Shown: positions 1 to 9,564, counted from the whole stretch's first letter. The stretch: 59,755 nucleotides of DNA, filler included, from 9 parts of 9 records of this genome joined end to end with filler, not necessarily neighbours in it; one strand, 5' to 3'. Numbers and translations: made by a program. Notes: generated by a model not told the origin, from the letters alone.

Positions 1-2702
1 TAGAACCTTAAGAATAGACCGAGCATGATCTGTCTGGGTGAATAATAACGAGAGGGATCGTAGTTCGGATTTCTTCCACCGTAATAGCTGTAGGAAATGA
101 TCTCACCGGGATCATATGGCTCGCCGGTGAAAGGATTGATCCTTCTCGGTACTTTATGGTTAAAGACATTTTGGACATCGATATAGAAGCCATATGTCAA
201 ATTCTTATAATAAAAATCTTTTGTGAATTTCAGATCAACGGTCAGATAAGGATCTGCGATCTCACCATAGGGGTTATCACTCCGTGAGGTTCCGATATAC
301 CAAACGGTTCCATCACCTGTAGTGACCGTATCAAGAATAACACTCTCAGTGTATCTTCGGCCGGCTTGCGCTTCGATGTGCGCATTTAGCGACCAATTGT
401 TTATCCATGGAGATATATCTTCTTCGTACATATGAAAACGCAGGTTTGCGATCAGTCTGAAGGGCTCATCCCAGGATAGATAATTCTCTGTTAAAGGCTT
501 TTCAGGGATCATACCGGCTTCAACAAGCACATTATCGTCCGGACTGGAACTCTTACCTGTTGTGACCGAATAGGTGAATGATGCATCACCACTGAAGAAA
601 CGACCTGCCGTTTGACGAAACATGAATTCAAGTCCATAAGATCTTGCATAATCCATATTCAGATACATCATCAAACTGTAATTACCGACAAGCGGATTAA
701 AAGAGGTAATAGTCTGGGCCGTTTCATAATCGAACATATCTTTATAGTAGGCCTTGAATTCAATGGCTGAAGCGGCAGAGAATTTATGTTTTAGACCTAT
801 CTCGTAAGCAACGGTTGTCTTTGGATCTAAATTGGGATTCCCGATCAGGCTGTAGGGGTTGTCCGACACCGTATTTAGCTTTGCGTAAACATAGTTATAA
901 GTTGGCAACTGTGAGAAATGTCCGTAATTAAAATAAAGAACATCATTATCGGTCACGGGGTGACTGATTCCAAGGCGAGGACTTAAATGGCCTTTGAAAC
1001 GTGCTCCGAAAAGATTGCTTGTTTCATCGAAGAAACGTTCACGTCCGGCTTCAGTAATGGTCAGGATATCCGGATCCATCATGGCATCAGTTACTTCCTT
1101 GCCGATAAACCAATAATCATAACGGATACCAACATTGGCGATCATACCTTCAAAGGTGATCTTGTCCTGAATATACATTGATCCGTCAGAGGGCTTGACG
1201 TTGTAATAATCATAACTTTCACCCAATCCCGATCCAAGCCATGGTTTGTAGATATCGATGACTTGCATTTCAGTCGCACGATGTTCAAAACCCGCTTTCA
1301 TTTTATGCTGTGTGCTTGGATGGTAGGTAAAATCTGAAGATAAAGTATAGTTTTTACTCCAGTAATCGTACCAATAGGGGGCATCGCCGTGATCCCAGAA
1401 TTCATCACCGGTGTAAACGACGACGTTTCCGTATTCATCTCGGGTTTGATATTCAGTAGGATCTATATCCAGGATCTCATCATACTCGGTCCAATCTTTA
1501 TTTTGAACGGCTTTATGAAAAGATGTAAAGAAATAACCTGCATTGACCGTATAAAACAATTTCGGATTGATCGTATGTGTCCAAAGTGCGTTGATAACTT
1601 TTGATTCTCTCGTAAAGGTCGGGTAATTATCCAAAATTTCCTGAAAAGCATAAGGGAAAGAGGATGAGGTAAAATAACCCTGGTTTACGTTCGCAGATTG
1701 ATTATAAGAGATGGAGAATTTATATTTTTGATTATAGTTCCAGGAAAGTTTTCCCATCGTAGACATGTTGTTTTCCTGCCGGGTGGTAAAAACATTCATC
1801 CAATCTCTGTAGGGATATAAATTGTTCGAACCCGGTAAATAGGAATCTGAAAGATATAAATAACCACTGACAAAATAAGAAAGATAACCCGGTATTAACT
1901 TGCTGTCACCTTTAGTGATCGGACCACCAAGTGTAAATTCTACGTTATCCGTATTAAAACCGCTGCCACCGAAAAGCTGATCGGTTTTATATCTGAACGA
2001 CCCTTCAAAATTGGCTGCACCTTCTTTTAGTTTAACGTCAATAATACCGGACATTGCCTGCCCGTACTCGGCATTGAATCCACCGGTGATGATCTCTAAT
2101 TGCTCAATAGCATTGGGGTTTACATACAAACTTGAAGATTCACCCGTAAGCGGATCTTTAATGGAAAGTCCGTCCACAATGAACTGACTTTCATCAACAC
2201 GGCCACCGCGAATATGGATCTCGTTATTGGATGTGGATACACCTGCCTGCTGACCAACAATATCTGCAACACTTTCTACGATCTTACCCATCAGATCGTC
2301 AGCAGTGACGGATACCGATGAAGCGGTTGAAGCCGCATCGATCAGAGGTTTTTCTCCGACAACGATAACATCTTCACCCAGAGCAAGGACAGTTGTTTCA
2401 AGAGCGATATCCATTCGGATATTTTCATCTTGATCCAATTCGATACCACCATGCAAGTACTGTTTATATCCGATCATGGAGACCATCATATCATATGTAC
2501 CGGCACCCATACCGGTAATAGTAAATGACCCATCCATTGATGTAGCGGCACCGTAATAAGTACCTTTAAGGATAATGTTAACACCTGCCATGGGCTCTTT
2601 TGTCTCTGCATCCGTGACCACACCCCGTATGGCGGCCCCGAACGCGGAAGCGGATAGGCAGAGTAACGTAAGCGCAACTATGTATTTTGTCAATTTTTTC
2701 AT
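1..2702 (-). CDS. TonB-dependent outer-membrane receptor with N-terminal carboxypeptidase-regulatory-like domain (~900 aa; stop codon cut by window edge)
   Basis: Not in ORF track. Both ends translated by hand. ATG at 2702 gives MKKLTKYIVALTLLCLSASAFG (signal peptide) then AAIRGVVTDAETKEPMAGVNIILKGTYYGAAT; plug motif HIRGGR near 2200; the same frame ends ...PRQIMLGLFLRF at position 3, followed by TA (terminal Phe typical of beta-barrels). Confidence 0.9.
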   Translation of the reverse strand, partial: MKKLTKYIVALTLLCLSASAFGAAIRGVVTDAETKEPMAGVNIILKGTYYGAATSMDGSFTITGMGAGTYDMMVSMIGYKQYLHGGIELDQDENIRMDIALETTVLALGEDVIVVGEKPLIDAASTASSVSVTADDLMGKIVESVADIVGQQAGVSTSNNEIHIRGGRVDESQFIVDGLSIKDPLTGESSSLYVNPNAIEQLEIITGGFNAEYGQAMSGIIDVKLKEGAANFEGSFRYKTDQLFGGSGFNTDNVEFTLGGPITKGDSKLIPGYLSYFVSGYLYLSDSYLPGSNNLYPYRDWMNVFTTRQENNMSTMGKLSWNYNQKYKFSISYNQSANVNQGYFTSSSFPYAFQEILDNYPTFTRESKVINALWTHTINPKLFYTVNAGYFFTSFHKAVQNKDWTEYDEILDIDPTEYQTRDEYGNVVVYTGDEFWDHGDAPYWYDYWSKNYTLSSDFTYHPSTQHKMKAGFEHRATEMQVIDIYKPWLGSGLGESYDYYNVKPSDGSMYIQDKITFEGMIANVGIRYDYWFIGKEVTDAMMDPDILTITEAGRERFFDETSNLFGARFKGHLSPRLGISHPVTDNDVLYFNYGHFSQLPTYNYVYAKLNTVSDNPYSLIGNPNLDPKTTVAYEIGLKHKFSAASAIEFKAYYKDMFDYETAQTITSFNPLVGNYSLMMYLNMDYARSYGLEFMFRQTAGRFFSGDASFTYSVTTGKSSSPDDNVLVEAGMIPEKPLTENYLSWDEPFRLIANLRFHMYEEDISPWINNWSLNAHIEAQAGRRYTESVILDTVTTGDGTVWYIGTSRSDNPYGEIADPYLTVDLKFTKDFYYKNLTYGFYIDVQNVFNHKVPRRINPFTGEPYDPGEIISYSYYGGRNPNYDPSRYYSPRQIMLGLFLRF

Positions 2703-2703
2703 G

Positions 2704-4209
2704 CTATTCATCTAACTCAAAAATATAGTTAAACAGATCATCAAGATTATCGTTGCCATTCAAGTAATAGAGTGGGATCGACATATAGTAACAGACTCCG
2801 TCGCCGATCGGTGTTTCGATCATGACAGGTGGTGTACCGCTATAATCACTTGTATTCAATGAATCATGTTCAAAATGATAACGCAAAGTCGAACTTGAAC
2901 CGGGTTCAATAGCATATAATTTATCAGCAAGAGTCGAAGAAACTTTTAGCGTCAGATCATTATTTAAGGTTGAGTCACCCCATTCCGCATCAATGTTAAC
3001 TCCGGAATATATACGACCTGTCGGACTGTATTGGTAAACTGTATCGATATCCGTAAAGGTCCATACAGTATCGGGACGGCTTCCTGTGGCAACTTTTTGT
3101 GCATTATCAATAAACAGCGTACCACCATCAGCAGCAAATCGAGTTAAAGCAAGATTAGCATCATCCAAGCTATTGGATCCCCTGAATGTAAACCAGAATA
3201 CTTTAGAAAAAGAACTAAGATTCAATTCTATATCTTCAGGTGAAAATGGTACTGTATTGGCCGTATTGGTACTGGTGCTTCCGATCTCCCAGGTTGAATA
3301 ACCGTCAACCGTAACCAGATCGGTAAGAACACTTTCATATAGATTTTGATGAGCATAGGCAACTTGATCGCCAGCGAAATCATTAACGATCAGAACATCT
3401 CCAACCGGTTCGTTGACTTCCCAAGTCAAAATTTTTGAATCATCACTGTCAGGGTCCGGGAAAGTAATAATGTTGCTTTCCGCACCTGCAATATCTTTAA
3501 CTTTAAGATAAATTTTGTGTCGTCCCGGAAGAATATCTGTTATCATAACTTCTCTTTCTGATCCTTCAAGCTGTAACCAGCTGGAAGTATCATCCAGAGC
3601 ATAAAAAATATCTGTAATTGTTTCGTCACCATCAATATCACTAATATCCCAATAAAAAGAATGATGTGTGAATGAATAGTGTACGGAATCCTCTGTTCTT
3701 GAGCTAAGAGGAAGTGAATTCAGTTTCCATTCAACTTCGGGAGGTGAATTGAAAACCGGAAATGAAGCCACTGCGGCTGTGGGATCCATTAAACTGTCGT
3801 TATCGACAGCCTGAACATGGAAACTGTAAATATCAAATTGTGTGCGCAGGGGCAGATAAAAAATTGCAGATTCGTCCTGTGTGAAAATCGGCTCATCCAT
3901 GTAGGACCAGCGGTAGTAATAACCGATCACATCTCCATCGGGATCATCTCCCCACCAATGAACTTCTTGTACCGATACGGTAGTGTCAAGCCCCATGAGC
4001 AAAGTATCCAGCACCCAGGTGGTGTCACCTCTGTATTCCCAATAATCTCCCGGACCCAGTGTGGTATCGGGATGATAAAAGAAAGAAACATGGGTTTCAG
4101 GCGCCAGGTTTACGGCGGTTGAAGGGGGAAGGGGCGGGCGGAAACAGGCCGCAACGGTCAGGATGAGGACCGTTAACATACTTAGAGATATAATTCGTGT
4201 TATCTTCAT
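2704..4209 (-). CDS. Putative lipoprotein (surface/periplasmic, Ig-like/Y_Y_Y-like segments)
   Basis: ORF 2704..4227; likely start MKITRII at 4209; hydrophobic stretch ending LTVAAC (lipobox); repeated W-x-G/D-x-D-x-DG segments. Confidence 0.75.
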   Translation of the reverse strand: MKITRIISLSMLTVLILTVAACFRPPLPPSTAVNLAPETHVSFFYHPDTTLGPGDYWEYRGDTTWVLDTLLMGLDTTVSVQEVHWWGDDPDGDVIGYYYRWSYMDEPIFTQDESAIFYLPLRTQFDIYSFHVQAVDNDSLMDPTAAVASFPVFNSPPEVEWKLNSLPLSSRTEDSVHYSFTHHSFYWDISDIDGDETITDIFYALDDTSSWLQLEGSEREVMITDILPGRHKIYLKVKDIAGAESNIITFPDPDSDDSKILTWEVNEPVGDVLIVNDFAGDQVAYAHQNLYESVLTDLVTVDGYSTWEIGSTSTNTANTVPFSPEDIELNLSSFSKVFWFTFRGSNSLDDANLALTRFAADGGTLFIDNAQKVATGSRPDTVWTFTDIDTVYQYSPTGRIYSGVNIDAEWGDSTLNNDLTLKVSSTLADKLYAIEPGSSSTLRYHFEHDSLNTSDYSGTPPVMIETPIGDGVCYYMSIPLYYLNGNDNLDDLFNYIFELDE

Positions 4210-4222
4210 GTGTTTTTTTATA

Positions 4223-4256
4223 ATCAACCCGTCCCAATTGAATGAGACGGGTTGAT
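4223..4256 (-). other. Intercistronic stem-loop (mRNA stabiliser or partial terminator)
   Basis: ATCAACCCGTC (4223-4233) and GACGGGTTGAT (4246-4256) are perfect 11-bp arms. The stem extends to 14 bp with one G-U pair on the minus-strand RNA; no U-tract follows in that direction. Confidence 0.7.
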
Positions 4257-4270
4257 ATGTGTATTAAACC

Positions 4271-6898
4271 TTACTTCAAGAGCAAGAGTTTGTTTGTTGC
4301 AGTAAATTCAGGTGTTTCGATACGATAGAGGTACATACCTGAGCTGAGATGAGCTGCATTCCAGCGTAGGTCGTATGAACCTGCATTCATAGTCGTATTG
4401 GCCAATTCCTGAACTTTTCGTCCTGTAATATCAAAGATAGTCAGTTTGACATTCGTTGCATTTGCAAGGTCGAAACGGATCGTTGTAACAGGATTGAAGG
4501 GGTTCGGGTAGTTTTGATGCAGTGCAAAGTTTGCAGGAACATCGGTAACACCGGGTTCAACAACTTCTTTGATCGTAACATCTTCAACTTTGCGAACTTC
4601 GATCTTAGATGAACCGTATGAATACATGACAACACCCTGTACGTTTGAAAGGGTATCACCTGCAACCAGGGTATCAATAGCACCGAGGATGGCATTTTCC
4701 TGATAGTTGATATCAAGTGTTGAATCAGATACCATGTCATCATCTAGGAGATATGAACCGGAAGCATCTGTTAAGGTCAGATCATATGAGTTGATCGATC
4801 CAACTTCCATGTCGCCATCAAGCTCAATTAATACACCTTCAAAACTTTCGGGATCAGCTTCAAGATCACCAAGCGTAATGCTTACAGGAGTAAGGGGAAG
4901 TTCACCAAGAAGTTTTGGTGTAACCGTACCTACAACGTAAGTATTAGTTTGCCATTTCCAGTAAGCTTCATGATCGTCATCAACTACACCGCTAACGGTT
5001 ACGACGTCGCCTTCATTCAAGGTAGCAATGGTTGAAGGATCAGCAAGGACCCATACACCGTTCCATGCACCGCTTGCATCTGCAACCGCCATGGCACCAA
5101 AGTTTGCATCATCTTTAAAATTCGTAGCAAGTGCACCGCTTGATGTAACCGTAGCATCAAATGTTACAGTACAACCATTCAAGGGGCTTACACCGCTTTC
5201 GGCATGTGTGTACTGAATATCGTATACAGTAGCAGCCGCATCCAGAACTTTATAAGCGAACAGTTGTTCTTCAAAGTTCATAGGCAGAGCTGATACGTCT
5301 GAAGAATCATCTACTACATAATAGTAGTATTCAACGATCGCACCGTCGGACTGTGCGGGGATGGTACCTGACCAGACATTACCAGTACCTTCGACCATAT
5401 CTACACTCGAGAATGCTCCGTTATCGACTTTATAGAAAACTTTTGCCGTATCAATGTTTCTCAATGTTGAGATCAGGATATTGGCAACAACGCTTTCTGA
5501 TGAAGTCGGAATATTTGAAGGAGTTCTGGAAGGATTAAGCAACATGGCAGGACCTTCACCCAGAACGATATCTTCTCTGTAAAGAGGACATAGCTGATAG
5601 GTTGAAGAATCTGCATATGAACCGTAATGGTGGTATACCCAACCGGTGATCGATTCGATAGGGGTCATGATAGGAGGAGCGACATAGCCGTCCAGACTAT
5701 CTGAATCGTCATCGATCAAAGCCATACCGCTTCCATCATCGATACCAAGGATCATATAAGGTTCTGTTGTGCTTGTTACAAGTGCATCTTCAATTCTAAC
5801 TGTAACATTTCCCCACTGTTCAGCTGTAACGGGAACACAGAGATCACCGGTTGTAACAACTGAAGTATCAGGAAGATCAGCTACACCAAGAAGATTGACA
5901 TCACCGACCAACCAAAATTCGGTCATATTTGCAGGACCAGTTGTGTATTCACCAACATAGCCACCCATTTCGATAAGGTCGCCTTCAAAGAGGTCGGGAT
6001 ATAATGCTGCATCTGCGTTGTACGAAAGAATCGCACTCCAAGGACCACCATGAGAATCTGTCAAGATGAATTTTACACCATCACCTGCATAACTTAAACC
6101 TGTAGGCATGGTAACAACACCTTTAACGTACAAAGTAGTATCTTCAACATCCAAGTATGAAATATCAGATGTAGCATCTTCGATCGTTTTCAAAAGATCA
6201 GAATGTCTGACTTGCTGAATTCTTTGAATACGAGTGTAAACTTTTGTTTCGCCGCTAAAAGGACCTTCAACGATATCCCAAGCTAAACGAGGGATGATCT
6301 TACGTTTACTGTATGAATAGTTCATAACACCTGTAATAGAGATCAGGCTATCGTAGTCTTCAGGCCAGAAATAGTAAGCGCAGTTACCGTCATCATCAAC
6401 ACCAACCGTATCGCTTGCATCAGCGATATCCCATTCACCAAAACCGGCATCAGGGTTAGTAATTGCAACATTTTCAAGTCTTACTAAACAGCCTTCATAG
6501 TCTTCAAGATTTGCATCAGCTGCTGAGATAACAGCGGGTTCTGGACAACCAACACCTGCTACATCAACAGTTAAGGCAGTTACATTTTTGATCTGTGTCA
6601 TGTCGTAGTATTCATCAACTTCACCTGAAATCGTAACTGAATCACCTTCAGCAACAATTACGGAATCGCCGACAAGATTATCTACATGAGTTCCAAGGTA
6701 AACATAAATACCATTCCAAGCGCCTGCACCGTCCTGAATGAACATCTTGCTGCCACCCATGGCATAAGGTTCAACGGTAACAACACCGGAAACCGTAACA
6801 GTACCGGTAGCTGTTCCATTTTGAATTTCGCTGATCGTGGTCGCAAATGCGCCTGCGGCCAAGAGAAGCGCCATCAAAACGATTAACATTTTTCTCAT
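4271..6898 (-). CDS. Secreted protein with three tandem pairs of YhcR/ExeM-type OB-fold domains, an Ig-like insert and a C-terminal T9SS type-A sorting domain
   Basis: Signal peptide; three recurrences of T/R-I/V-x-x-IQ...V-x-G/A-V/T-VT...D...W-x-G/A-I/V, each followed by E-x-x-(E)G-x-x-V/I...DDD...GV/W-x-x-Y; C-terminal FALHQNYPNPFNPVTTIRFDL...SSGMYLYRI...KLLLLK. Confidence 0.75.
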   Translation of the reverse strand: MRKMLIVLMALLLAAGAFATTISEIQNGTATGTVTVSGVVTVEPYAMGGSKMFIQDGAGAWNGIYVYLGTHVDNLVGDSVIVAEGDSVTISGEVDEYYDMTQIKNVTALTVDVAGVGCPEPAVISAADANLEDYEGCLVRLENVAITNPDAGFGEWDIADASDTVGVDDDGNCAYYFWPEDYDSLISITGVMNYSYSKRKIIPRLAWDIVEGPFSGETKVYTRIQRIQQVRHSDLLKTIEDATSDISYLDVEDTTLYVKGVVTMPTGLSYAGDGVKFILTDSHGGPWSAILSYNADAALYPDLFEGDLIEMGGYVGEYTTGPANMTEFWLVGDVNLLGVADLPDTSVVTTGDLCVPVTAEQWGNVTVRIEDALVTSTTEPYMILGIDDGSGMALIDDDSDSLDGYVAPPIMTPIESITGWVYHHYGSYADSSTYQLCPLYREDIVLGEGPAMLLNPSRTPSNIPTSSESVVANILISTLRNIDTAKVFYKVDNGAFSSVDMVEGTGNVWSGTIPAQSDGAIVEYYYYVVDDSSDVSALPMNFEEQLFAYKVLDAAATVYDIQYTHAESGVSPLNGCTVTFDATVTSSGALATNFKDDANFGAMAVADASGAWNGVWVLADPSTIATLNEGDVVTVSGVVDDDHEAYWKWQTNTYVVGTVTPKLLGELPLTPVSITLGDLEADPESFEGVLIELDGDMEVGSINSYDLTLTDASGSYLLDDDMVSDSTLDINYQENAILGAIDTLVAGDTLSNVQGVVMYSYGSSKIEVRKVEDVTIKEVVEPGVTDVPANFALHQNYPNPFNPVTTIRFDLANATNVKLTIFDITGRKVQELANTTMNAGSYDLRWNAAHLSSGMYLYRIETPEFTATNKLLLLK

Positions 6899-6921
6899 CT
6901 TGAGTCTCCTTTGATTTGGAT

Positions 6922-9072
6922 TTACTTTATAACTAACAATCGACCGGTCTTTATAAAACCGGTGTCATTATTTTCTACTGCAAATATATACATGCCTGTT
7001 GCCAGAGCCTGATCATGATCGGTGATCAGATCCCAAGCATGCTCTCCACCTGAATAGACGGTTTCACTGCTAAGTCCTTCGGCAAGACGGCGGGTATCGG
7101 CTCCGGAATAGGTAGACGCATCATGTTCGATGGTCTTAACAAGTTCACCGGAAATGGTAAAGACGCGTATAGTGGAATTATCCGGTAGTCCCGTGAACCA
7201 CACCATTCGATCCCGCACTCCCAAACCGTCCCAAACGGCATTAACGCGATAAGGATTGGGGTAAACACCCACTTCGGTAAGTTCGTCATCAATGGTCTGT
7301 TTTCCGGTCACAACCGTGATCCTGTTCTCCAATTGAGATGATTCAAGGGATTCTAGCCCTGTTCTGGGGTCACCTTTATCATATGAAGTGACGGCAAAAA
7401 TATTTTTATCGGGCCAACCGTTAAGCAAGTTGCTGTTCTCGAATTTATAATAGAATGTATCCTGTCCGAAGATCTCATAAGAATCATTGCCGAATTCATC
7501 TTTGATCCTGATATAATCAAAACCGGTATTATAACCGAATTCATCATCCAGGTCAAATGTCGCCAATAAACTCCATTCTTCAGCTAGTCCAGAGGTTTTT
7601 CTTCTTGCGTATACTTTGTATCCTTCAAAATCCTGTTCGCGTGAAATGGGGTCTTCCGCAAATTCCGGGATATTGTTCCAATAGAGAGTAACCTTGCTCT
7701 CATCAGCAACTACATGCAGTTTCGGTGAAGGGGGAGGTGCAGGTAGAACAAACCTGTCAAGAATACCATCTCCATCCTGGTCTTCCTGTATCTCCGGATC
7801 CAGTTTCCCGTTTCCGTTGATATCTTCACCGTTGAAAGCTTTTTGAGCCCAGTCAGCATTCACTCTAAGCAATGCACGTCTGCCGGCATTATCATCTTCG
7901 CCCGTGTTTGCCCAACGTCCGCAAACAACTGCAAAAGCTACATCAATGGCTTCTCCGGGAGGGATTTCCCAGGAAGAGCTGTCCGATACTGCGGGAACAG
8001 AACCGAAAGGACCTGCGCCGACAAGGATCATCCATGAAGCCGGACTTGAAGGATAACCTTCATCCGTATATAAAACGTCACCCAGGTGACGAGGTACTGA
8101 ATTACTTAATTTATCATAACGTTCTTCATCGGTCAATGGCATAAAATATTCGGGATAATCGGCATCCAGCGAGGTATTCCATTTCCATTGATTGTAATAG
8201 GTATCCCAATATGCGCGAGGAACTGTTTCTGTGCCAAGGAAAGTAAAGCCGACATAACTTTGAGCATAACCGTTATCACCATCCTGATCGAACTGATATG
8301 CGATATCTCTATCCAAACCTTCAAAATCATCGTCCGGAATAGGATCAAAAACAGATTCATCGAAACCGTTTTGGTTATCGTACCAGCTCCAACCTCCGCC
8401 GGGTTCATAAATACTGGTATAGTTCATATTACCGACTGCAGCATCCGCCCAAATACCGACAAAAACATCTTTGATCGTGCTGGAACCAATATTTTTTATA
8501 TTATAATTAAGGATAACAAAAGCATCTGTAAATGAATAATTCCATGTATAGGTCGTCATATCAATTTCAATATGTAGGGGTCTGTGATTGACGACATCTT
8601 TCTCGTCATGAAAAATCGACGTGAAATCCTGATGGGATATTGCATAAGGCGAATAGACCTTCGACGTAGGAATGGAAGACCTTTCAAAGATCGAATCACC
8701 ATAGTTGGTAAATTCAAAACCTTCGGCTCCATAATCGAATACACCGTCTACCACACCGGTAGAGACAAGTTTTTCACCATTGACGATACCACCGACCCAA
8801 AGGCCGCCGTATGACATGTGTTCGACTTGTTCTTTGATGTTGTCCGGGTATTGTTTGTACATGCAACTGGGTTGGTTGGGATTGTTATAACCTTCACCAA
8901 GAACACCAAAGTTCGTGATGGTCAATCCTAACTGACCTACCGTTGTGTAATGCACATAATCGGCAACAAGATCTGTCGTTTTTTGTAGGGATACCGGATA
9001 CCTTTCATTGGCAGTCAGGAATCCCGACAATGCTAATAAAGCAGAGAAGAATAATACTATGTGTTTTTTCAC
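6922..9072 (-). CDS. Secreted T9SS-type cargo protein with Ca-binding DxNGNGxLD motif, fibronectin-like segment and FlgD/CTD-like tail
   Basis: 716 aa; signal peptide; DINGNGKLD...DQDGDGILD; PPPSPKL...VTLYW; tail VYPNPY...IRVFTISGELVKTI...WDL...ATGMYIF. Confidence 0.75.
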   Translation of the reverse strand: MKKHIVLFFSALLALSGFLTANERYPVSLQKTTDLVADYVHYTTVGQLGLTITNFGVLGEGYNNPNQPSCMYKQYPDNIKEQVEHMSYGGLWVGGIVNGEKLVSTGVVDGVFDYGAEGFEFTNYGDSIFERSSIPTSKVYSPYAISHQDFTSIFHDEKDVVNHRPLHIEIDMTTYTWNYSFTDAFVILNYNIKNIGSSTIKDVFVGIWADAAVGNMNYTSIYEPGGGWSWYDNQNGFDESVFDPIPDDDFEGLDRDIAYQFDQDGDNGYAQSYVGFTFLGTETVPRAYWDTYYNQWKWNTSLDADYPEYFMPLTDEERYDKLSNSVPRHLGDVLYTDEGYPSSPASWMILVGAGPFGSVPAVSDSSSWEIPPGEAIDVAFAVVCGRWANTGEDDNAGRRALLRVNADWAQKAFNGEDINGNGKLDPEIQEDQDGDGILDRFVLPAPPPSPKLHVVADESKVTLYWNNIPEFAEDPISREQDFEGYKVYARRKTSGLAEEWSLLATFDLDDEFGYNTGFDYIRIKDEFGNDSYEIFGQDTFYYKFENSNLLNGWPDKNIFAVTSYDKGDPRTGLESLESSQLENRITVVTGKQTIDDELTEVGVYPNPYRVNAVWDGLGVRDRMVWFTGLPDNSTIRVFTISGELVKTIEHDASTYSGADTRRLAEGLSSETVYSGGEHAWDLITDHDQALATGMYIFAVENNDTGFIKTGRLLVIK

Positions 9073-9096
9073 TGAAACCCTCTAATTCCAAATGTT

Positions 9097-9125
9097 AAGA
9101 TAAGGGCATTTTAGGGCAATGTCAA
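9097..9125 (-). promoter_or_regulatory. Sigma70-type promoter for the four-gene operon
   Basis: Minus strand TTGACA (9125-9120), 17-nt spacer, TATCTT (9102-9097); AT-rich UP-like tract 9126-9146; GAGGG RBS before GTG at 9072. Confidence 0.7.
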
Positions 9126-9146
9126 AAATAAAAATATATTTTTAAA

Positions 9147-9194
9147 GCACAATATGTTGCGCTGTTTACATAAGAAACGTACAAGATGTGGTTG
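9147..9194. promoter_or_regulatory. Tandem NrdR-box-like operators
   Basis: GCACAATATGTTGCGC (9147-9162) and GTACAAGATGTGGTTG (9179-9194) both fit acaCwAtATaTwGtgt and are 32 bp apart start-to-start. Confidence 0.6.
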
Positions 9195-9198
9195 AAAC

Positions 9199-9359
9199 GT
9201 TTAGAAGTTTAGAGGTTGAGAGGTTTAGTATATTGATTATCAATGGATTGCAAGATGTATGATTATGAAATTGGACCCTTTTGTCCAACCTGACGATAGT
9301 ATGCTTATCAATTTATGTCTTTTGCTCTCCTAAACTGCTAAACATCTAAACTGCTAAAA
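9199..9359. repeat. Two inverted arrays of four 8-mers (GTTTAGnn)
   Basis: GTTTAGAA GTTTAGAG GTTGAGAG GTTTAGTA (9199-9230) and TCCTAAAC TGCTAAAC ATCTAAAC TGCTAAAA (9328-9359). Confidence 0.7.
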
Positions 9360-9469
9360 CTCTTTAAAAAAAACATTCCAAACAGGACTCCAATATCTTA
9401 TATTTTGGTGCGAGGGAAAACAGGCTGCCAGGCCTGTCGCTGTAAAGGGTTAAAATTAAAGGAATAGAG

Positions 9470-9564
9470 ATGTTAAAGGCAATTTCACCTCTCGATGGTC
9501 GTTATCATAAGCGTGTCGAGGCGCTCGGCGATTACTTCTCGGAATATGCACTGATGGGTGCACG
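9470..9564 (+). CDS. purB: Adenylosuccinate lyase, N-terminal fragment (contig end)
   Basis: MLKAISPLDGRYHKRVEALGDYFSEYALM matches the PurB N-terminal SPLDGRY...YFSE motif; AAGGA RBS. Confidence 0.85.

Follow-up and report, generated by a model that had tools for sequence, protein, structure and literature searches.

A conserved NrdR-type operator at a six-gene TonB receptor operon of Marinisomatota, a candidate nucleic-acid scavenging system

Introduction

Extracellular DNA constitutes a large pool of carbon, nitrogen and phosphorus in sediments and seawater, and, to our knowledge, few outer-membrane DNA importers are known. In the DNA-utilisation locus of Bacteroides, the DUF5689 protein is DdbD, which was modelled as HIN-like (PMC12478041), and in Riemerella anatipestifer, a DUF5689 partner and a TonB receptor are essential for transformation (PMC8459023). 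In this work, we analysed a DNA stretch of 59,755 nt (the window), in which nine unrelated contigs are joined with N-linkers, and we describe, on its first contig (1-9564), an operon encoding a TonB-dependent receptor and a secreted OB-fold protein (P2) that is preceded by an NrdR-type operator and is predicted to scavenge nucleic acids.

According to the published rules for NrdR, its operators comprise two 16-bp boxes with six core bases each, separated by a 15-16 bp linker; residues D15 and R17 of the protein contact the bases, and binding in vitro extends to heterologous boxes (PMC13584703).

Results

An NrdR-type operator at the operon promoter

An earlier reading of the window, made from the sequence alone (the sequence-only reading), had noticed two NrdR-box-like 16-mers upstream of P1, the first gene of the operon, and these proved to form an NrdR-type tandem operator. 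The boxes are spaced 32 bp from start to start, and the core bases C4, A6, A8, T9, T11 and G13 are complete in both (6/6); with these bases and a linker of 16 bp (16-17 bp in relatives), the pair satisfies the published binding requirements (PMC13584703). The score matrix was trained exclusively on boxes of ribonucleotide reductase (RNR) genes, i.e., 24 regions, 16 of them from close relatives, with tandem boxes 31-33 bp apart. Five of the 29 RNR regions fetched were not used, namely one starting inside the gene, one nrdD and three without a pair near the start (the 33-bp spacing was not rescanned). Based on this matrix, the window pair is the best tandem pair across 59.7 kb, with 14.7 bits. 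All 16 loci with a P1 of 74-89% identity carry a pair at -118 to -123 from the P1 start, with 6.7-31.3 bits, and a seventeenth genome also has one upstream of P1 (20.1 bits). In none of the 18 promoters (the window and 17 relatives) was the score attained by any of 200 shuffles, and in 1.43 Mb of loci outside the clade a single position reached the window-pair score; together, these two backgrounds exclude a chance motif.

The 17 box-bearing P1 sequences form one branch in a tree of 47 sequences (FastTree support 1.0), which we refer to as the box clade. Among these relatives, the proximal box keeps 6/6 core bases in 16/17 and the distal box 5/6 in 15/17, and box identity (0.70-0.71) is about twofold that of the linker (0.34). 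An NrdR-type tandem motif is also present at the RNR large-subunit gene (PF02867) in 16/16 clade genomes having the region, where the linker of the pairs is 17 bp. A strict genome-wide pattern retrieved 21 sites in the 17 genomes, i.e., 16 at RNR, two at this operon, one at an Lrp operon and two intragenic, with none for the reversed control; a half-site pattern matched this operon in 11/17 genomes (21 rows; control, 5). The genome-level tests (nrdR, RNR, EEP and salvage genes) were made on relatives of the window contig. As expected by the sequence-only reading, nrdR belongs to the host lineage, being above cut-off in 16/17 close genomes, and also in 15/17 of the more distant genomes tested; one clade NrdR that was translated retains both D15 and R17. 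We consider the operator at the operon promoter to be very probably a functional NrdR site.

The sigma70-type promoter TTGACA-17-TATCTT ahead of P1, also read from the sequence, is by itself at chance level (26 sites found vs 25.7 expected); its -35 and -10 elements are, however, conserved in an alignment of the window and 16 relatives. The proximal box lies upstream of the predicted -35, at a distance of 21 bp, and adjoins an A/T tract; 74 bp separate its end from the P1 start codon. In contrast, box 1 of the clade RNR gene lies, as judged by eye, between -35 and -10. A layout similar to that of the operon is found at nrdHEF of S. pneumoniae, where both promoter elements are downstream of box 2 and the start codon is 68 bp off (PMC12051234), which makes repression from upstream boxes plausible. 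Repression, released when deoxynucleoside triphosphates (dNTPs) are low, would be the likelier sign of control.

A six-gene operon conserved in two phyla

Four packed, co-oriented open reading frames (ORFs), P1 to P4, lie on the minus strand of the first contig (Table 1), in agreement with the sequence-only reading; however, the operon really consists of six genes, i.e., P1, P2, P3, the TonB receptor (P4), a PorV-like barrel and an NHL lipoprotein, of which the last two lie beyond the window edge and were seen in relatives. This order is kept in 64 of the 75 loci that extend 11.5 kb or more downstream, from two phyla; among the 11 exceptions, several are clustering misses and two have the last four genes relocated upstream. 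P1 was found in 159/301 Marinisomatota genomes, mostly as a single copy, and in 57/151 genomes of a second phylum that appears to be KSB1; the labels of the homologues are Marinimicrobia/Fidelibacterota, KSB1 and Caldithrix, which places the host of the contig in Marinisomatota. The operon ranks with the best-conserved surface loci in both of these uncultured phyla, and no part of it has a named function. When genome contigs were scanned with a profile of the P2 alignment, few of the 72 loci were true orthologues, the matches being dominated by the tail motif of type IX secretion systems (T9SS).

In the 12 more distant genomes that were extended upstream, the operon follows a same-strand gene of sprA size (12/12; one confirmed as SprA), which supports dependence on T9SS but also a housekeeping role. 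In many Marinisomatota (L382-L393), the operon closes a longer run that comprises rdgB, sprA, two to three uncharacterised genes, one PorZ-like gene and a pair of PorV-like genes; rdgB stands ahead of sprA in a box-clade locus too. In two sister clades (L255, L256, L259, L266, L298-L301; L254, L260, L261), purine genes stand back to back with the operon: purB-purD-purN-purF in the box clade and, behind a Na/Pi cotransporter, guaB-purA(-guaA) in the neighbouring one.

Table 1. Features of the operon and its upstream region on the first contig of the window
Feature	Position	Strand	Description
P1	6922-9072	-	716 aa; signal peptide, beta-supersandwich (about 40-445), FN3-like domain, C-terminal secretion-type domain
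P2	4271-6898	-	875 aa; three OB-fold pairs (19-213, 222-447 and 557-778; DUF5689-like; count model-derived), one Ig/FN3 domain (448-555), T9SS type A tail (797-871)
P3	ORF 2704-4227; likely start 4209	-	507 aa; lipoprotein; lipobox cysteine by sequence reading
P4	3-2711	-	903 aa; TonB-dependent receptor: CarboxypepD_reg, plug, barrel; Pfam/NCBIfam
Hairpin directly after P2 stop	4223-4256	-	-24 kcal/mol
Sigma70-type promoter	9097-9125	-	-35 TTGACA 9125-9120, 17-bp spacer, -10 TATCTT 9102-9097
A/T tract, operator to -35	9126-9146	-	A-run/T-run kept in promoter alignment; probably UP-element-like
Proximal NrdR box	9147-9162	.	six core positions; 16-bp linker to distal box
Distal NrdR box	9179-9194	.	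all six core positions
purB start	9470-9564	+	divergent neighbour, outside the system; PRK09285 E 4.5e-8

The last base of the P4 stop codon alone falls beyond the window edge. A hairpin of differing sequence occurs at the same spot after the P2 stop in 18/18 other loci folded; it may be an mRNA stabiliser or a partial terminator, and its position suggests more P1/P2 message than receptor message. An Rfam scan of 1-9564 gave no match. In the intergenic region, inverted arrays of short 7-9 bp repeats (9200-9230 and 9328-9362) flank the side with the purB promoter; at this site, relatives carry other low-complexity repeats or insertions, and the operator position is unchanged. The remainder of the window (9565-59755) comprises eight unrelated contigs with N-linkers between them and a G+C content of 29-62%.

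The secreted OB-fold protein and its partners

In the structural model of P2 (pLDDT 89), residues 17-120 match the OB domains of RPA, Teb1 and tRNA synthetases (Z 11-12; root-mean-square deviation (rmsd) 2-3) and residues 253-339 match SSB (Z 10); the matches to RPA, Teb1 and SSB have Z 10-11. A Foldseek search with P2 returned many generic beta-rich structures, and CST and the HIN-dsDNA complex of p204 were among them. The six OB folds claimed from the sequence were thus confirmed by predicted structure for these two segments, while the count of six is suggested by the repeated secondary-structure pattern of the model and by DUF5689 matches to pairs one and three in orthologues. DUF5689 was above the Pfam cut-off on those two pairs in 7/20 orthologues scanned, a set enriched for precomputed matches, and the central pair is the most conserved one, with R223, R226, W420, H423 and H424 among its conserved residues. 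Additionally, the P2 family profile matches the DUF5689 lipoprotein of a Flavobacteriales EEP-TonB-DUF5689 locus (E 1.5e-5; probability 80%).

In line with the proposal that the OB type is that of ExeM/NucH, model NF033681 matches with E 3e-16 over positions 17-115 of 546, with a score of 59 vs a cut-off of 300. JGI labels of homologues name YhcR, another extracellular nuclease. P2 as a nuclease was rejected, since it has no EEP or thermonuclease domain and its model contains OB, Ig and tail domains only. Its T9SS tail (PF18962, 44 bits) and the TonB receptor, both recognised in the sequence-only reading, were recovered by Pfam/NCBIfam. A complex prediction of P4 (128-899) with the central OB pair of P2 (222-447) scored 0.10, which speaks neither for nor against their contact. 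Longer P2 forms of pelagic lineages (P0046, P0093, L001:8546-12187) have extra N-terminal lamin-tail, cytochrome c, reeler-like (by eye) and DUF4961 modules.

P1 has no Pfam family and no name in the ESM Atlas; the T9SS-type tail proposed for it has a weak PorZ C-terminal match only. Its model (pLDDT 77) matches the N-terminal domain of GH116 with Z 19.1 and rmsd 3.8 over 279 aligned residues; P1 as a glycoside hydrolase was rejected, as the model has no catalytic barrel. P3 belongs to no Pfam or NCBIfam family and its ESM Atlas neighbours are unnamed, the nearest named one, DUF4960 at 0.90, being a lead only. A PDB sequence search with the receptor alignment returned generic plug matches only, and no SusD or glycoside hydrolase family occurs among the six core genes. 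Of the T9SS machinery, the translocon gene sprA was searched for and is present in 5/5 clade genomes.

Neighbouring genes and salvage functions

A secreted EEP-family protein with a T9SS tail stands beside the operon in 25 of the 87 long loci. Among genomes having this EEP family, the gene lies within 16 kb of P1 in 19/31 Marinisomatota and 11/19 second-phylum genomes (30/50), and it is upstream, downstream, convergent or divergent with respect to the operon; these counts are raw, from genomes that are not phylogenetically independent and with no baseline from paralogous TonB/PorV operons lacking the OB protein, and the family was searched in 80 of the 159 P1-positive Marinisomatota genomes. 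The neighbours in lineages other than the box clade include ExeM/MnuA-like EEP, metallophosphoesterases, a type I phosphodiesterase and, in three loci, a 5'-nucleotidase-EEP fusion; a Na/Pi cotransporter and a pst cluster also adjoin the operon there. In the box clade, a GDPD gene follows the operon in six loci; a PF19580-type secreted EEP is encoded beside sprA, unlinked to the operon.

Glycoside hydrolases, which would have pointed to another substrate had they been consistent neighbours, are scattered single ones (3/103 proteins scanned, from 178 rare neighbour proteins), and nuclease-family genes are recurrent. Additional neighbours and host genes that the sequence-only reading had proposed to look for were found in part: the PorV-like gene follows the receptor, EEP genes recur in other lineages, and two deoxynucleoside kinases, a thymidine kinase and two 5'-nucleotidases are present in 5/5 clade genomes, together with comEC, which also occurs in 10/14 control genomes. 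UBA2242 Marinisomatota, to which the box clade may or may not belong, were detected in DNA-amended cultures (PMC8630151).

Discussion

Proposed function

Based on these data, we propose that the six genes would encode a machine at the outer membrane that captures nucleic-acid fragments and imports them. P1 and P2 would exit via the T9SS translocon SprA, as suggested by their tails and the presence of sprA, and would be held at the surface, probably by the PorV-like barrel of the operon. The DUF5689-like OB pairs of P2 may bind DNA or RNA and, as they are acidic, would probably do so through divalent-cation bridges. The polymer would be cut by a secreted nuclease of the EEP family, whose gene adjoins the operon in other lineages and, for the box clade, is presumably the one encoded elsewhere; the TonB receptor and the two lipoproteins would import the oligonucleotides, and periplasmic nucleotidases and cytoplasmic deoxynucleoside kinases, whose genes were found, would salvage the imports. 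NrdR loaded with dATP/ATP would dampen the operon when dNTPs are ample, and dNTP shortage would free it together with RNR.

Three partly independent clues, i.e., domain family, neighbours and regulator, make nucleic acid a reasonably probable substrate. For NrdR-repressed nucleic-acid scavenging by the six-gene operon as a whole, as predicted from sequence and models, the case is evenly balanced. If true, import would be an alternative to de novo reduction that is tied to the dATP/ATP balance, and the NrdR regulon, treated as almost RNR-specific, would extend to outer-membrane transport; the operator provides an independent regulatory clue to the substrate of the operon.

Several observations, gathered in this and the following paragraph, weigh against the proposal. 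Scanning 97 more distant genomes (three with short upstream sequence) up to 400 bp from P1 yielded no pair, the best score being 0.2 bits, nor did the 12 of them that were followed another 15 kb upstream contain any intergenic pair above 5.2 bits, so that the conservation of the boxes upstream of homologues holds in 17/17 close relatives but in 0/97 more distant genomes. The monophyly of the box-bearing P1 and the missing pair in distant genomes indicate that the operator was gained once, in a one-clade recruitment; the 17 relatives are therefore one evolutionary event under continued selection and not 17 independent ones, and NrdR control as a general feature of the operon is ruled out. The outer C of the distal box is lost in 14/17 relatives, and the operon boxes do not overlap the promoter, unlike those of the clade RNR gene. 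The linked EEP family is found in 0/17 box-clade genomes, and hence the operator clue and the nuclease clue never occur in one locus; moreover, EEP proteins include non-nucleases. A C69 peptidase gene is directly ahead of P1 in 12 loci of one lineage, and the folds closest to P1 are glycoside-hydrolase accessory domains, namely the N-terminal domain of GH116/GH94/GH65. The window P2 itself has no DUF5689 match and a pI of 4.05, with a net negative charge of 7-15 on each of its OB domains, and in 64 homologues all OB domains are likewise net negative; the DUF5689 comparison protein is likewise negative, though less than P2. Finally, P4 could not be significantly aligned to a receptor of the DdbC type (best E 0.46), the comparator being the receptor of one Flavobacteriales EEP-TonB-DUF5689 locus that is DdbC-like by gene order and not DdbC itself.

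NrdR-like sites also occur where no nucleic-acid substrate would be expected. A second TonB/PorV operon encodes an Lrp regulator, a secreted protein, a TonB receptor, a 1094-aa protein with a P1-like tail, PorV and two secreted proteins including an S8 peptidase (L374:2278-18770 in genome G021; L375:100-16764 in genome G108), and its function is likely peptide import. About 175-195 bp before its start, an NrdR-like pair is present in 5/11 clade loci scored, with 23-25 bits in three genomes and 8-13 in two, the other six having at most 2.7 (3/16 Lrp loci were not parsed). An NrdR box alone is therefore no proof of a nucleic-acid substrate; of the regulatory and domain clues that had been read together as pointing to nucleic acids, the operator and the OB folds are real, but the S8-peptidase operon carries a similar site. 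Tandem pairs are absent from the salvage kinases and from the fetched loci of deoxynucleoside kinases, thymidine kinase, nucleotidases, EEP and comEC, where one strong box accounts for the top score of 11.8 bits. Just before a deoxynucleoside kinase gene (L344:1401-1416, G108) stands one near-perfect NrdR box that has no good partner, and three other deoxynucleoside kinase loci fetched have no NrdR pair. The class III RNR gene nrdD, present in 1/5 clade genomes, has no strong tandem pair in G021 (L296), unlike the other RNR gene of that genome. Another intergenic NrdR-like pair (L378:1498-1545, G021; 18.4 bits) lies amid repeat-rich secreted-protein genes, in this one genome only.

Alternative explanations

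The site at the Lrp/S8-peptidase TonB operon would be accounted for if NrdR served surface operons generally as a switch for growth state and the machine imported peptide or glycan, or were a housekeeping accessory of T9SS. The mostly single-copy and widespread occurrence of the operon (159/301 and 57/151 genomes), the same-strand sprA-sized gene ahead of it in 12/12 extended distant genomes, the glycoside-hydrolase accessory fold of P1 and the acidity of P2 also fit this explanation; we nevertheless consider it unlikely, given the DUF5689/ExeM-type OB pairs, the recurrent EEP and nucleotidase linkage in two phyla, glycoside hydrolases that are merely scattered single neighbours, and an Lrp/S8 site that is absent or weak in 6/11 clade loci. 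An opposite sign of control, in which NrdR at about -63 and -95 would activate or shape the promoter and the operon would be on when dATP builds up in non-replicating cells, is quite unlikely. The boxes are upstream of the UP-like tract and not over the promoter, and NrdR activates topA of P. aeruginosa (PMC4409342); however, it does so from a single box, every characterised tandem site represses (PMC13584703), the S. pneumoniae nrdHEF layout is similar to that of the operon, and a tetramer bound beside the A/T tract could block the C-terminal domain of the RNA polymerase alpha subunit.

Scavenging of nucleic acids must also be weighed against uses that share some of its components. Natural transformation, i.e., uptake of intact DNA as with RA0C_RS04915/04920 of Riemerella, with NrdR linking competence to dNTP status, would draw on the essential role of the DUF5689 partner and TonB receptor in R. 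anatipestifer (PMC8459023), on comEC in 5/5 clade genomes and on a box-clade operon with no internal nuclease; it is decidedly improbable, as comEC occurs in 10/14 control genomes too, the secreted nuclease-family genes linked elsewhere point to degradation, and the receptor is of another family. We see a slim chance that wider phosphodiesters (glycerophosphodiesters, lipids, teichoic-acid fragments) are scavenged for phosphorus, as would befit the GDPD gene after the operon in six clade loci and the metallophosphoesterases, type I phosphodiesterase, Na/Pi cotransporter and pst cluster nearby in other lineages; the presence of NrdR rather than a phosphate regulator and the DUF5689-type OB pairs argue otherwise. 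There is hardly any probability that the boxes control the divergent purB-purD-purN-purF cluster instead, even though purB is a nucleotide gene and, in most clade loci, lies divergently next to the operon: the spacing of the pair to the -35/-10 of P1 is conserved, and the pair is fixed at -118 to -123 from P1, in keeping with the earlier assignment to the operon promoter, while the start of the purB frame is about 350-650 bp away, and the pair persists where purB is separated off or replaced by other genes, a transposase or a GIY-YIG-like insertion (L078, L079, L085, L091). We therefore rejected purB as the NrdR target.

Comparison with known systems

No publication on an NrdR-controlled TonB receptor or on this operon was found in a search that covered the subscription literature thinly and that regulon-table listings in supplements could escape. 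The architecture, which the sequence-only reading held to be undescribed, is new in its NrdR link at this operon type, whereas DNA-utilisation loci with TonB and an OB partner have already been described (ddbABCDEF, PMC12478041). A Halomonas nrdR paper was discarded as a precedent, nrdR being merely an editing target there.

Polysaccharide utilisation loci of the SusCD type likewise combine a TonB receptor, surface lipoproteins and binding proteins in one operon; in contrast, this operon has no SusD match and no core glycoside hydrolase, and it has T9SS-tailed partners and a PorV-like barrel. The ExeM/NucH nucleases (NF033681) share an N-terminal OB segment with P2, which, unlike them, has no EEP or thermonuclease catalytic domain. 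With regard to the regulator, Rodionov and Gelfand reportedly described, in 2005, NrdR sites at Firmicutes salvage genes such as dgk-pnuC and nucA. The operator resembles the known NrdR regulon (RNR operons, PMC13584703, PMC12051234; topA, PMC4409342) in its two 16-bp boxes, six core bases, free-sequence linker of 16-17 bp and the presence of nrdR in the genome; it differs in that its target is an outer-membrane import operon, the boxes are wholly upstream of -35, and it is restricted to one clade.

In R. anatipestifer, RA0C_RS04915/RA0C_RS04920 likewise place a CarboxypepD_reg outer-membrane barrel beside a DUF5689 protein (PMC8459023); that system has two genes instead of six and a different receptor family, and its role is genetic transformation. 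The ddbABCDEF locus of B. thetaiotaomicron (Sharan et al. 2025, PMC12478041), a species with no nrdR match in our control panel, has in common with this operon a TonB receptor beside an OB-type surface protein, probably DUF5689-related here, that resembles HIN domains; its linked secreted nucleases have putative counterparts at this operon in other lineages. Unlike the ddb locus, this operon has a receptor dissimilar to the DdbC type and an OB protein that is T9SS-tailed, with three pairs, and is not a lipoprotein lid; it adds P1, the PorV-like barrel, two lipoproteins and the NrdR operator, and its core has no nuclease. The operon would work like the ddb locus, yet it is no member of it by receptor. 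We tentatively suggest, at somewhat less than even probability, that it is a widespread and so far undescribed second type of nucleic-acid importer, combining a multi-OB capture protein delivered by T9SS, a PorV-like anchor and a TonB receptor family of its own, across Marinisomatota and related uncultured phyla, wired to NrdR in one clade, and the first outer-membrane scavenging system to answer the dATP/ATP balance.

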